64,000 bases of DNA, from contig WAKF01000023.1 in NCBI GenBank assembly GCA_015523465.1, positions 6,184-70,183 of the forward strand, written 5' to 3'. The notes beneath the pieces were generated by a model. It was given only the letters and a program-made list of their open reading frames with translations, searched no databases and was not told the origin of the DNA. Source of the DNA: Aeropyrum sp. GTDB lineage: Archaea > Thermoproteota > Thermoprotei_A > Sulfolobales > Acidilobaceae. Both the position numbers and the translations under genes were made by a program. The first letter of the stretch is position 1, and the number at the start of each line of letters is the position of its first letter. This document shows, piece by piece, positions 6,203-9,986 of this stretch.

Positions 6203-7102
6203 GTGCAGGGCCAAAGCAAGATTACAGAACTTAGGAAGGAGGCCGACGAAATAGCTAAGCAGCTTGAAGACTTGAGAAGCGAGATAGTTAGGCTTAAGGA
6301 GGAAAGGAGAAGGCTTATAGATGAGGTTAAGGGCCTTAGACAGCAGAGAAGAGTTCTTATAGACGAGAAAAGGAAGCTTGTTGAAAGGCTTAAGACGCTT
6401 AGAGATGAGAGGAAGAGGGTTCTAGACGCCCTAGCTAGGCTTAAGGAGGAAAGGAAGAAAGCTAGGGAAGAGTTGATTATAAAGAGGGATCAGTTGAGGG
6501 TCCTTCAGAACTTGGTTGCTAAGGAGGGCGGTAGTAATATTGCTAAAGTGAGCGTTAAGAGACTTCAAAAGAGGATTGAGGAGCTAGAGATGATAATGCA
6601 GACGAGGCTTTTAGCGCCTGAGGAGGAAAGAAGGATTATTGATGAGATAGCTAGGCTTGAGGAGATCGTTGAGAGAGTTAAGAAGGCTAGGCAACAGGTC
6701 CTATCACTTATAGAACTCAAGGCTGAGGTGAAAGCCCTAATCCTTAGGAATAGAGAGTTGACGGAGAAGATTAACGAGCTTAGGGAGAAGGCTGGCAGGC
6801 TTAAGGCTGAGCTGGGAGAGGTTACAAGGGCCATAGAAGACTATAACTCCAAGATCAACGAACTAACAGTTAAGATAGATGAGCGCAGCAAGGCTATAGA
6901 CGAGCTTACTGTTAAGATAGACGAACTACAGTCGAAGAGGAGGGAGCTAGAGAAGAAGTTAGCTGAGATAAAGTTTGCCATAGCTAAGGGAGTCGAATTA
7001 GAGGAGATTGAAAGGAAGAAGAAGGAGTTAACGGAGAAGATGAAGCGCGGGGAGCCTCTAACCCTGGAAGAGCTGAAGCTACTCTACGGCGTTTTAGATT
7101 AA
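6203..7102 (+). CDS. Conserved archaeal coiled-coil protein (COG1340-like)
   Basis: Continuous heptad E/K/R/L pattern, LAPEEERRIIDEI segment, and C-terminal KMKRGEPLTLEELKLL. Confidence 0.8.
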   Translation: MQGQSKITELRKEADEIAKQLEDLRSEIVRLKEERRRLIDEVKGLRQQRRVLIDEKRKLVERLKTLRDERKRVLDALARLKEERKKAREELIIKRDQLRVLQNLVAKEGGSNIAKVSVKRLQKRIEELEMIMQTRLLAPEEERRIIDEIARLEEIVERVKKARQQVLSLIELKAEVKALILRNRELTEKINELREKAGRLKAELGEVTRAIEDYNSKINELTVKIDERSKAIDELTVKIDELQSKRRELEKKLAEIKFAIAKGVELEEIERKKKELTEKMKRGEPLTLEELKLLYGVLD

Positions 7103-7197
7103 GAAGAGTACTCATAGTGGATGTAAATAATATAGTCGCATATCTTTTACTAGACCCTCGTGAGAGCGAGTGGTAGCAAATCAAGGTTGAACTAATT

Positions 7198-7269
7198 GGG
7201 TGCTCGGCTGGGTAAGTTGTCGTCATAGCCTCGAGGGCTCAGGCCGGGAGTAATTCGTCACTGCCACCC
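7198..7269 (-). ncRNA. Box C/D guide sRNA (minus strand)
   Basis: Minus strand reads GGGTGGCA-[C GTGACGA]-ATTACTCCCGGC-[D' CTGA]-GCCCTCGAGGCT-[C' ATGACGA]-CAACTTACCCAG-[D CCGA]-GCACCC. Terminal stem GGGTG/CACCC and two 12-nt guides. Confidence 0.78.
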
Positions 7270-7336
7270 TAGTGATTCTTAGGATTTAATGCGGGATTAA
7301 GAAGTTAATTCCCTAGGGTAACTGTAGCGGTTTAGG

Positions 7337-7401
7337 GGCACGGATGACGAGACTTGCCCCCACCTGATGTATGACGAGATTACCGCGGTCACGGACGTGC
7401 C
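7337..7401 (+). ncRNA. Box C/D guide sRNA targeting 16S rRNA helix 18 region
   Basis: GGCACG-G-[C ATGACGA 7344-7350]-GACTTGCCCCCAC-[D' CTGA]-TGT-[C' ATGACGA]-GATTACCGCGGTCA-[D CGGA]-CGTGCC. Perfect 6-bp terminal stem; guides antisense to GGGGGCAAGUC and GCCGCGGUAAU of crenarchaeal 16S. Confidence 0.9.
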
Positions 7402-7446: not shown

Positions 7447-7803
7447 GTGAGTTTGGTCTTGGGGTGGACGGAGGATGTTTCTCTAGCCTTGAAGGTTCGG
7501 GGTTACCGTGTTTCGAGGGTTGTAGAGAGGTTTAGGAGTTTTGAGGGTTCTATCGTAGAGAGGATTAAGGTGGTAGGATTTAGTAGTGATGGTAGGGTTA
7601 AGATTAGCGTTGTGGGTTTAGAGGGAGGTTTAAAGGTTTCCATATTAGTTTCTGGCGGCATTGAGAGCTTACACGGCTTAGCTGAAGATGCTGAAGCTCT
7701 CGGAGGCATTGTAGACCTGGATGAGGATTCTGGGAGGCTTTATATAGTGTTTAAGAGTATTGATGTTGAGAGGGCGGGTGCTCTTATTGAGAGTTTGCTT
7801 TGA
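7447..7803 (+). CDS. Hypothetical protein (118 aa)
   Basis: Open frame with host-like codon usage (AGG/GAG/GTT rich); overlaps the next ORF. Confidence 0.6.
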   Translation: MSLVLGWTEDVSLALKVRGYRVSRVVERFRSFEGSIVERIKVVGFSSDGRVKISVVGLEGGLKVSILVSGGIESLHGLAEDAEALGGIVDLDEDSGRLYIVFKSIDVERAGALIESLL

Positions 7804-8962
7804 TGGCGTGTTAATGCCTAGCATAGATTGGGTCTCAAGGATTAGGAAGGCTGTTCCAGGCTATGCATTGGCCTCCATTGAGGGGGCTCCTAGCTTTAAT
7901 GATGTTAAGCTTGCTTGCGGCCCTTATACTAGCGGAGAGGGGCTTGAAGCGCCATACCTTGAGGCTCCTTCCAGGTTTCCTTTGAAACTGGAAAAAATAG
8001 ATCCTAGAGACGTCGCGAAGGGGCTGCTCGAAGCTATTGACGGCGAAGACGCTAATGGCTTTTTTAACCCATTGTCATGGAGGACATTGACGCCTGTTGA
8101 AGCAGAGACTCGAGGTTGCATTGAGAGCGAGTGGGGTCCTTTAGCTCCTCCGGGCCTAGACCAACTAATAACTTATGAGCCTTTAAGGTGCTTCACAGCG
8201 ACTCAGCCAGGTTCTCAAGGAAAGTTGGTGATAGGAGGGTTAGCCGAGTCTGAAGGCCGTTATACCAGGGTAGGGTTGTGGAGAGTCTACAAGCTAGCGG
8301 GTGGGTGGACGGGTTACGAGAGTGGCGGGTCTATATTGCTTGTACCAGGCTCTAGGGAGCTTGAGTTCAGGTTAAGAGCTGCAAAGGTTAAGGTGAGGCT
8401 ACTTTATTTAAACTCGTTCGCGGAGCCTCTGTCATCATGTTATTTTAGAGAAGGCTTATTTGAAGCTACGGCTCTTACCTTATCGTTAGGCCCGCGCAGG
8501 CTAGCCCTTGCATCTAAGGAGCCTTTTACCCTCGAGCTTACGAGGGGGCTTATGAGAATAAATGCGAAGACTCCCCTAAGACTTCTTGCTGGAGGAAGCG
8601 ATACAGCTTTTAGAGCTTTAGCTGAGAGCCTCGTTGAGTGGAAAGCCGTTGAAGGCCCCCGAACCCCTCTCAACTTCTATGGTGTATCGGCCCACGCTAT
8701 AGTGGTTTACGCTGGAGGCGGTGAAATTAGATTCAAAGCTCTTACCTTAGAGGGCTCTGAAGGCGGGAGGGTCCACTTCAACCCGCCAGGGCCTACAGAC
8801 TCCATAGAGGTTCTGGGACCGGGGGGTGAAATAACCGAGATGCCTGGAGGTCCTAGAGTTAGCGTCCCCTTGCCACCATGCTTCTGCGGATACATAAAAG
8901 TACGGTTACGTCCTAAGGCGAAGTTCAAGCTTAGAGCTAGGCTTGGGCGGAGTAGTATCTAG
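7760..8962 (+). CDS. Hypothetical protein (~400 aa; true start may be ATG near 7812)
   Basis: Long ORF; beta-strand-rich C-terminal half; no confident family. Confidence 0.65.
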   Translation: MMLRGRVLLLRVCFDGVLMPSIDWVSRIRKAVPGYALASIEGAPSFNDVKLACGPYTSGEGLEAPYLEAPSRFPLKLEKIDPRDVAKGLLEAIDGEDANGFFNPLSWRTLTPVEAETRGCIESEWGPLAPPGLDQLITYEPLRCFTATQPGSQGKLVIGGLAESEGRYTRVGLWRVYKLAGGWTGYESGGSILLVPGSRELEFRLRAAKVKVRLLYLNSFAEPLSSCYFREGLFEATALTLSLGPRRLALASKEPFTLELTRGLMRINAKTPLRLLAGGSDTAFRALAESLVEWKAVEGPRTPLNFYGVSAHAIVVYAGGGEIRFKALTLEGSEGGRVHFNPPGPTDSIEVLGPGGEITEMPGGPRVSVPLPPCFCGYIKVRLRPKAKFKLRARLGRSSI

Positions 8963-9705
8963 AGGCTTTCCGCCTCTCCAGCCTCTATAGGACCTCTCAC
9001 TCTAAGCCTACCCTCAGCCGCCGCTTTCACATAGTTTATGAAGTCCTCTTCGTAGGGTACACCTACGAATACTAGTTGACCGTTAATTGCTATGCTAGGC
9101 ACACTCATAACCCCATACTTATCGGCTATGTCAGTGTTCTCGTAGGCCTCGACGGCCTCAGATAGTATCACGGGGTTGCCTCCTACGTAGGCTTCGTATG
9201 CGAACATGTGGGATAGTAGGACGGCGTAGGGGCAATAGGGGCAACTGGGCGTTATTATAACCTCTATGTGGACCCTACCCTTTAGCCTCTTAAGCTCCTC
9301 CTTAGTAGAATCCTCGAGACCCGACTCTCTCTCACTCATCCTCATTATAACCTCCACTAGAGCCCTGATCTCCTCCCCCGCAGGTATTCCAGTCCACCTA
9401 GCATAACCCTCGATAAAGGATACTGTAGGAACCCTCTCAACCCTCTCCCTCTTAAAAGCCTCTAAAGCCCCCGGATCCTCCCTCCAGTACACATTGAGCT
9501 TGAAAAGCTTCCTGCCATCCCTAACAGGCGCCTCATCCTCTATCGCCTTCATCAACTCCAGCGTATCCTCGCAGGTATCACACCCCCTCCTAGACAGAAA
9601 CAGACTAGCCTCTACAGGATGAATCATCTCAGCCAGCGTATCCCTAAGGTCCCTACGAAAATCTGGTGATAAGTCTAACTCGTAGAATCTCCTATGCACA
9701 GCCAC
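8959..9705 (-). CDS. Protein disulfide oxidoreductase (PDO; two thioredoxin folds)
   Basis: CDTC and CPYC motifs, ERVPT and MSVPSIAING cis-Pro loops. The ORF track extends to 9810, but SD GGAGGTG places the start at a GTG near 9705-9699. Confidence 0.9.
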   Translation of the reverse strand: MAVHRRFYELDLSPDFRRDLRDTLAEMIHPVEASLFLSRRGCDTCEDTLELMKAIEDEAPVRDGRKLFKLNVYWREDPGALEAFKRERVERVPTVSFIEGYARWTGIPAGEEIRALVEVIMRMSERESGLEDSTKEELKRLKGRVHIEVIITPSCPYCPYAVLLSHMFAYEAYVGGNPVILSEAVEAYENTDIADKYGVMSVPSIAINGQLVFVGVPYEEDFINYVKAAAEGRLRVRGPIEAGEAESL

Positions 9706-9907
9706 CACCTCCCCATCTACAGCACTTCCCCAGCCTAACACTCTAACATAACCCTCCACAGGACTTAAACAATAATGCATACCCCCTCCCACTACAGTCC
9801 CAAATAACATACTCTAGGGGCAAGGCCCGAAACAATGCAGACTTAAGCACGTAAGCCCCCGTAGGGGTTAAAGGCACAGACAGCCTCACTACCCACACCG
9901 GGCCTGA

Positions 9908-9986
9908 GCGGCGGTCGTCTAGCCTGGACTAGGACGCCGGCCTGCCAAGCCGGAGGTCCCGGGTTCAAATCCCGGCCGCCGCACCA
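9908..9986 (+). tRNA. tRNA-Gly (GCC), no intron, encoded CCA
   Basis: Acceptor stem GCGGCGG/CCGCCGC, anticodon arm CCGGC-CTGCCAA-GCCGG, T arm CCGGG-TTCAAAT-CCCGG, 3' ACCA. Confidence 0.97.

Follow-up and report, generated by a model that had tools for sequence, protein, structure and literature searches.

The closest described relative of the RNA considered here is sR441 of Ignicoccus hospitalis (CCGGAUGGGGAAUUACUCCCGGACUGAGGGAGUGAGGACAGCUUACCCGGCCGACGGG...), an archaeal box C/D sRNA that is represented by 3750 RNA-seq reads and predicted to target G2216 and G2173 of 23S rRNA (Dennis et al. 2015, BMC Genomics 16:632, Additional file 1). Because position A2178 in the alignment of that study corresponds to A1912 of E. 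coli (an offset of 266) and the alignment blocks of this region are without gaps, these two targets are equivalent to E. coli G1950 and G1907. sR441 is the type of a dual-guide family in which a single RNA carries a D′ guide for G1907 and a D guide for G1950, in that order. One or the other of the same two nucleotides is also the predicted target of further sRNAs, with G2173 listed for Methanopyrus kandleri sR43 and G2216 for Pyrobaculum calidifontis sR112 (Dennis et al. 2015), and the consensus of the Rfam family RF01149 (Pyrobaculum sR10) has the D′ guide core ACUCCCGG. In all three, however, the common guide stands beside a different second guide, so that they are not members of the same dual-guide family. 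More generally, helices 68, 69, and 71 are known as an archaeal methylation hotspot at the subunit interface, and double guides whose targets lie within 100 nt of each other have been proposed to help the rRNA fold as well (Dennis et al. 2015 and related papers).

The G1907- and G1950-equivalent sites are published predictions, and our literature search found no direct measurement of methyl groups at either of them. Eukaryotic box C/D snoRNAs resemble their archaeal counterparts in the k-turn boxes, the N+5 rule, and the use of fibrillarin as methyltransferase but are longer, usually have one functional guide, and carry degenerate C′/D′ boxes; the two equivalent positions are not known to be methylated in yeast 25S rRNA.

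Here, we compare these systems with an RNA encoded on the minus strand, at 7269-7198, of the window (the whole 64-kb stretch of DNA that was analyzed). Based on its sequence anatomy, its conservation, its complementarity to 23S rRNA, and its homology to the expressed Ignicoccus sRNA, this is in all likelihood a dual-guide archaeal box C/D sRNA that directs 2′-O-methylation of the 23S nucleotides equivalent to G1907 and G1950. It is the counterpart of I. hospitalis sR441 and, as such, an ordinary archaeal guide and a member of a known family. The two RNAs agree in their architecture, in the unusual D box CCGA, in their predicted G1907 and G1950 targets, and in their guides (AUUACUCCCGGA in sR441 and AUUACUCCCGGC in the window for D′; CAGCUUACCCGG and CAACUUACCCAG for D). 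In sR441, by contrast, the C box is aberrant (AUGGGGA), the spacer of 4 nt makes the internal motif a k-loop without a hairpin, and the D guide contains a G that leads to a G·U pair. Ignicoccus is also the more distant of two relatives of the host: its thioredoxin-like protein (protein disulfide oxidoreductase, PDO) is 52% identical to that of the window, compared to 77% for Aeropyrum pernix. The aIF5B of the window is 80% identical to that of A. pernix K1, with MAGs of Desulfurococcales and Acidilobaceae as the next best matches.

Anatomy of the minus-strand sRNA and its neighbors

The initial annotation had read a box C/D sRNA on the minus strand at 7198-7269, closed by GGGTG/CACCC, and each of the elements that it listed is indeed found there. 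They are given below from the 5′ to the 3′ end of the RNA, followed by a block of DNA that separates it from a second, divergent sRNA.

7265-7269, minus strand: 5′ strand of the terminal stem, GGGUG, pairing with CACCC at 7198-7202
7264-7262, minus strand: linker GCA between the GGGUG stem and the C box
7255-7261, minus strand: C box GUGACGA, which departs from RUGAUGA by a C at position 5, or 3b of the k-turn
7243-7254, minus strand: D′ guide, 12 nt, ATTACTCCCGGC in DNA and AUUACUCCCGGC in RNA, complementary to GCCGGGAGUAA of 23S H69
7239-7242, minus strand: D′ box CUGA
7227-7238, minus strand: spacer, 12 nt, GCCCTCGAGGCT in DNA and GCCCUCGAGGCU in RNA, with a 3-bp hairpin GCC/GGC
7220-7226, minus strand: C′ box AUGACGA
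7208-7219, minus strand: D guide, 12 nt, CAACTTACCCAG in DNA and CAACUUACCCAG in RNA, complementary to GGGUAAGUU of 23S H71
7204-7207, minus strand: D box CCGA, which departs from CUGA by a C at position 2, or 3n of the k-turn
7198-7203, minus strand: 3′ strand of the terminal stem, G at 7203 and then CACCC at 7202-7198
7294-7317, between the two divergent sRNAs: 24-bp A/T-rich block, CCTAGGGAATTAACTTCTTAATCC on the minus strand

The internal D′ and C′ boxes and the two guides of about 12 nt that define an archaeal box C/D sRNA are all present; both guides are exactly 12 nt long, the usual archaeal length, and 58 nt lead from the C box to the D box. The GA dinucleotides of the C and D boxes are intact, as the tandem sheared pairs of a k-turn require. 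The boxes themselves are non-consensus, and the terminal k-turn would carry a C·C pair at 3b·3n; variant boxes (GAUGACGA, GAUGAAGA, and GAUGAGGA) also occur in the Ignicoccus list (Dennis et al. 2015). At the internal motif, the sequence U-A-U-GA together with the spacer hairpin would give C′/D′ full k-turn geometry rather than that of a k-loop, with GGC-UAU-GA placed opposite GA-GCC. The terminal stem GGGUG/CACCC appears in the minimum-free-energy fold and could be extended by a pair between C7263 and G7203, adjoining the k-turn. The folding energy as a whole is no better than that of shuffled sequence (z = 0.24), which is normal for C/D sRNAs and is uninformative here.

The layout of the four boxes is far from what is expected by chance. 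A relaxed regular expression for it has two sites in the 64-kb window, namely, this sRNA and its divergent neighbor at 7344-7395 on the plus strand, compared to a mean of 0 (strict form) or 0.005 (loose form) in 200 dinucleotide-preserving shuffles. Neither a looser expression with a terminal-stem requirement nor a whole-window Rfam scan at E ≤ 1 yielded further candidates in the window, the latter keeping only the match of the plus-strand partner. No Rfam family reached its gathering score at the site: in a 1.5-kb scan, the best match of the minus-strand sRNA was RF01149 (sR10), with 15.9 bits compared to a threshold of 45 (E = 0.38) and with only the D′ core and the boxes aligned. On the same strand, an open reading frame of 80 amino acids at 6984-7226 takes the ATG of the C′ box as its start. 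We rejected it as a gene because it extends from the 3′ half of the sRNA into DNA that is unconserved in a related contig (L001, described below), and regard it as a gene-calling trap.

The divergent partner, at 7337-7400 on the plus strand, is a box C/D sRNA composed of GGAUGACGA, GACUUGCCCCCAC, CUGA, UGU, AUGACGA, GAUUACCGCGGUCA, and CGGA and closed by the stem GCACG/CGUGC. Its guides match helix 18 of the 16S rRNA of a Desulfurococcus proxy, with 11 Watson-Crick pairs for GGGGGGCAAGUC and 10 for GCCGCGGUAAUA, and it scores 26.4 bits with the Rfam family snoPyro_CD, under the threshold of 45. The double guides for helix 18 that Dennis et al. discuss (Iho sR21 and its relatives) are probably its counterparts. 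Across the A/T-rich block between the two sRNAs, the window and L001 share 100% identity, with diverged DNA on either side; the block probably carries two TATA-like promoter elements placed back to back, with the 5′ end of each sRNA about 27-30 nt downstream of its element. Beyond the partner lie genes for proteins of 114 and 391 amino acids (7447-8962, plus strand), neither of which has a Pfam match. The 391-amino-acid protein has one relative in a search of 5.8 billion protein clusters (69% identity) and a 33%-identical homologue in A. pernix that was found through its neighborhood, and the gene pair is specific to the Aeropyrum clade. They are followed by the thioredoxin-like gene (protein disulfide oxidoreductase type; 8959-9810, minus strand), which adjoins a tRNA-Gly(GCC) with 72% G+C (9908-9986, plus strand).

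Predicted targets in 23S rRNA

As a proxy for the rRNA of the host, we used the 16S and 23S genes of a Desulfurococcus MAG (L085), a related crenarchaeal operon in which Rfam places the target match inside a complete 23S. The best site of the D′ guide in both genes is H69 (23S 2085-2096, GCCGGGAGUAAC), where it forms 11 contiguous Watson-Crick pairs with positions 2085-2095 (GCCGGGAGUAA). The D guide finds its best site in H71 (23S 2128-2139, CCGGGUAAGUUC), where it forms 9 contiguous Watson-Crick pairs with GGGUAAGUU and one more, guide position 2 being an A·C mismatch. On the same two sites, the guides of L001 form 12 (D′) and 10 (D) Watson-Crick pairs. The N+5 rule points to G2089 for D′ and G2132 for D in proxy numbering, 43 nt apart; the equivalents of E. 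coli G1907 and G1950 are the G residues that pair with the fifth nucleotide upstream of the D′ and of the D box, respectively. The best proxy matches of both guides thus support an assignment to the sites equivalent to E. coli G1907 (H69) and G1950 (H71), which lie near the intersubunit bridges B2a and B3, where the initial annotation had placed them too. Its targets prove right on the proxy, where they equal the published predictions for sR441. The 9 bp that it gave for the D guide on H71 is also what we find; for the D′ guide, the target of about 1907 stands (G2173 of sR441), whereas the pairing is 11 bp long and not 9. The two target sequences recur in contigs from the metagenomes of the host (see below).

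According to the published criterion, a target should form at least 9 consecutive Watson-Crick pairs that cover N+5 (Dennis et al. 2015), and both guides do so on the Desulfurococcus MAG 23S. Taken alone, each match is only modestly significant, in that shuffled guides match the rRNA equally well in 13 of 500 trials for D′ and 55 of 500 for D. The case for the targets rests on three things together, that is, that the best sites of the two guides adjoin each other, that they fall in a known hotspot, and that the guide cores are conserved.

One reading of the shorter pairing, which we consider unlikely, is that this is a genuine C/D sRNA in which only the D′ guide (H69, G1907) directs methylation and the D guide, being too weak on H71, serves as a tether or folding chaperone or is drifting toward an orphan guide. 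The 9 contiguous pairs, the mismatch at position 2, and the 55 shuffled guides that do as well would agree with this, as would the free variation of D-guide positions 1, 2, and 12 among homologues and the description of double guides in which one interaction is formed but does not lead to methylation (Dennis et al. 2015). Yet the 9 pairs run consecutively over N+5, the length that the published criterion asks for, the D core CUUACCC, with the N+5 position included, does not vary in any of the homologues whose discovery was independent of the guide pattern, and Iho sR441 is itself predicted to methylate the G1950-equivalent site. We consider it far less probable again that the guides act on another RNA (a tRNA, an mRNA, or another rRNA site) and match H69 and H71 by coincidence. 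About one-third of archaeal C/D sRNAs are without an rRNA target (Dennis et al. 2015), and the D′ guide has secondary matches of 9 bp at 648, 1104, and 474 of the proxy 23S. Against this, the best matches of the D′ and D guides come to lie within 43 nt of each other in a known methylation hotspot, and the tRNA-Gly of the window has no match longer than 5 contiguous pairs with the guides. Moreover, the guide cores are conserved across loci that range from 33% to 57% G+C, and hence across diverse hosts, as would fit a universally conserved target.

The target sequences are themselves widespread. A genome scan with the pattern CCGGGAGUAA-N34-GGGUAAGUU gave at least 120 stretches, and the matches listed were nearly all 23S genes from Thermoproteota, broadly defined, including Desulfurococcus, Acidilobaceae, and Thermofilaceae; the H69-H71 sequence GCCGGGAGUAAC...CCGGGUAAGUUC was found in the 23S of many Thermoproteota. 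Since the scan is keyed on the target sequences, it says nothing on how often they are absent. The unbiased alignment of seven species by Dennis et al. (2015) shows that Pyrobaculum, Thermoproteus, and Sulfolobus have GGGGGU in place of GGGAGU, which would result in a G·U pair.

To place the targets in the host, we turned to the metagenomes in which the window occurs, that is, Logan contigs from four DNA runs labeled hydrothermal vent metagenome, besides the MAG contig GCA_027075695.1. In runs X1 and X2, all H69 contigs read GCCGGGAGUAA, with no target variants at a 1% threshold, and a high-depth contig in each run extends to GCCGGGAGUAAC. For H71, one contig, identical to L085 over CCUUGCCGGGUAAGUUCCGGCGCGCAUG..., has a depth of 22 in X1 and 20.8 in X2; the window itself has depths of 28-32 in X1 and 28.8 in X2, and the X1/X2 ratios of the two match. 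This ratio is the sole link between the H71 contig and the host. The contigs are short, and the upstream part of the H69-H71 stretch shows many 23S variants in these metagenomes. The host very probably has both target sequences, with a circumstantial link between contigs and host.

In other organisms of runs X1 and X2, we observed 23S insertions, presumably introns, inside both guide target sites (seen against L085 5440-5518 and 5537-5587 and against L004 5158-5208). The insertion in the H69 loop follows GGGAGUAA and was seen in a contig of 1045 nt with a depth of 39 in X1; the one in the H71 loop measures about 1016 nt, lies at GGGUAA|GUU, and has a depth of 57 in X1 and 8 in X2. With such an insertion in the H71 site, these organisms would have the H71 target only after splicing. 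The 16S gene of L085 (1543-3221) is long, with 1679 nt compared to 1478 nt for the Rfam model, and has an A/T-rich insert right after GCCGCGGUAAUACCAGC that is probably a 16S intron.

Homologues and variation of the k-turns

Two homologues were located through neighboring genes, with the guides left out of the search. The first lies on L001, a 10-kb contig of a related MAG with the same gene order, whose neighboring gene is 69% identical to the 391-amino-acid gene of the window. At the same intergenic position, L001 reads GUGAGGA-GUUACUCCCGGC-CCGA-GCCUAUGGGCU-AUGACGA-CAACUUACCCGA-CCGA, with guides that agree with those of the window at 11/12 and 10/12 positions. Its terminal stem is altered yet still paired (GGAG/CUCC), its spacer keeps GCC...GGC around a different loop (UAUG), and its downstream flank is unrelated.

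The second, in A. pernix, was reached through the homologue of the thioredoxin-like gene; it is unannotated and lies on the minus strand at 12279-12332 of L142 (GCA_004323575.1, BDMD01000051). A literature search found no catalogue of A. pernix C/D sRNAs. This RNA reads GUGAUGA-UUUACUCCCGGA-CCGA-GCAAUGCU-GUGAGGA-CUACUUACCCGG-CUGA and shares with the window the two guide cores, a small GC hairpin in the spacer (GC-AAU-GC), and the neighborhood, which comprises the thioredoxin-like gene, lineage-specific genes for 394 and 119 amino acids (homologues of the 391-amino-acid gene, with 33% identity, and of the 114-amino-acid gene), and a divergent partner that targets 16S helix 18. It differs in having canonical C and D boxes (GUGAUGA and CUGA), in a D guide (CUACUUACCCGG) that pairs at positions 1-10 instead of 3-11, and in the orientation of the sRNA pair, which is inverted as one cassette with respect to the genes around it. 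The H69/H71 sRNA of A. pernix faces the 119-amino-acid gene, while in the window the 16S-targeting sRNA faces the homologous 114-amino-acid gene (L142 12279-12473 compared to window 7198-7400). The far flank of the pair is SRP19 in A. pernix and a coiled-coil gene in the window.

L001 and A. pernix have both preserved the guide cores and the box G·A nucleotides, with divergence in the flanks and the spacer loop. When the window, L001, A. pernix, and Iho sR441 are aligned, what remains invariant is the G/A nucleotides of the boxes and the two cores, UUACUCCCGG in D′ and CUUACCC in D. That the motifs arose by chance or belong to a decayed pseudogene in intergenic DNA, with no functional RNA made, is the least probable reading of all: the boxes are non-consensus, the fold energy is that of shuffled sequence, though normal for C/D sRNAs, and none of the RNA-seq runs searched contains this stretch of the window, but a layout expected 0-0.005 times per window recurs, with its functional nucleotides retained, at the corresponding place in two other genomes, and an expressed, published homologue exists in Iho sR441.

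The wider family was sampled with a metagenome scan whose pattern consisted only of the two guide cores, D′ (CNGA), and C′ (TGANGA), and which gave 18 loci (L124-L141). In all 18, a guide of exactly 12 nt separates D′ from a C box (NUGANGR) on its upstream side and C′ from a D box (CNGA) on its downstream side, although the scan demanded neither the C nor the D box. Across 20 distinct homologues, positions 2, 3, and 6 of the C box are invariant, position 4 is A in 19, and position 5 is any of the four letters; the D box is C-N-G-A in all 20 and CCGA in 7, including Iho sR441. The only box positions that vary freely are therefore C-box position 5 and D-box position 2. Together they make up the k-turn pair called 3b·3n by Lui et al. 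(2018), so that the odd letters of the window (GACGA and CCGA) sit at a tolerated position. The combinations found at 3b·3n in the C/C′ and D/D′ boxes of about 20 homologues are U·U, A·U, G·C, C·G, A·A, A·G, C·C, C·U, and G·U. Watson-Crick pairs are not significantly enriched among the 20 (p = 0.10 for C/D and 0.48 for C′/D′), and we thus claim no covariation at this pair. The terminal flanks, for their part, pair better with each other within a locus than when swapped between loci across the family (permutation p < 0.0002), and spacer length ranges from 3 to 17 nt.

These observations invite a broader reading, which we offer tentatively and regard as possible rather than probable. The H69/H71 dual guide might be among the most widely retained C/D sRNAs of thermophilic Thermoproteota, with the 3b·3n pair of both k-turns drifting through all types, Watson-Crick included; the Aeropyrum clade might have turned the internal k-loop into a hairpin-closed k-turn, and the divergent pair might flip as a unit. 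If these features reflect lineage-specific recognition by L7Ae or mobility of sRNA genes, the family would lend itself naturally as a data set on the sequence rules that govern k-turns.

Proposed mechanism and implications

We infer that the RNA is transcribed in the host, assembled into an RNP, and used for both methylations. In the mechanism that we propose, an sRNA of about 60-72 nt would be transcribed, probably from its own promoter, divergently from the second C/D sRNA. Its C/D boxes would fold into a k-turn and its C′/D′ boxes into a second one, closed by the small hairpin (2-3 bp in the window, L001, and A. pernix), and, by analogy with characterized archaeal C/D RNPs, L7Ae on each k-turn would recruit a Nop5 dimer and two fibrillarins. 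In nascent 23S rRNA, the D′ guide would pair with GCCGGGAGUAA on the 5′ side of H69 and the D guide with GGGUAAGUU in the H71 loop, 43 nt downstream of the H69 site. Fibrillarin would then act on the nucleotides that face the fifth guide position counted upstream from D′ or D, methylating the 2′-OH of the G1907 and G1950 equivalents. Because the two target sites are so close together, the sRNA may also hold this region of the interface together during 23S folding.

The mechanistic knowledge of C/D sRNAs is unchanged by this RNA. What it adds is one methylation guide, correctly predicted, for the annotation of a vent archaeon that is uncultured and related to Aeropyrum, and the unannotated homologue of the guide in the culturable A. 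pernix offers a place where both predicted methylations could be measured. On the level of the family, the roughly 20 homologues document natural variation at the 3b·3n pair of the k-turn.
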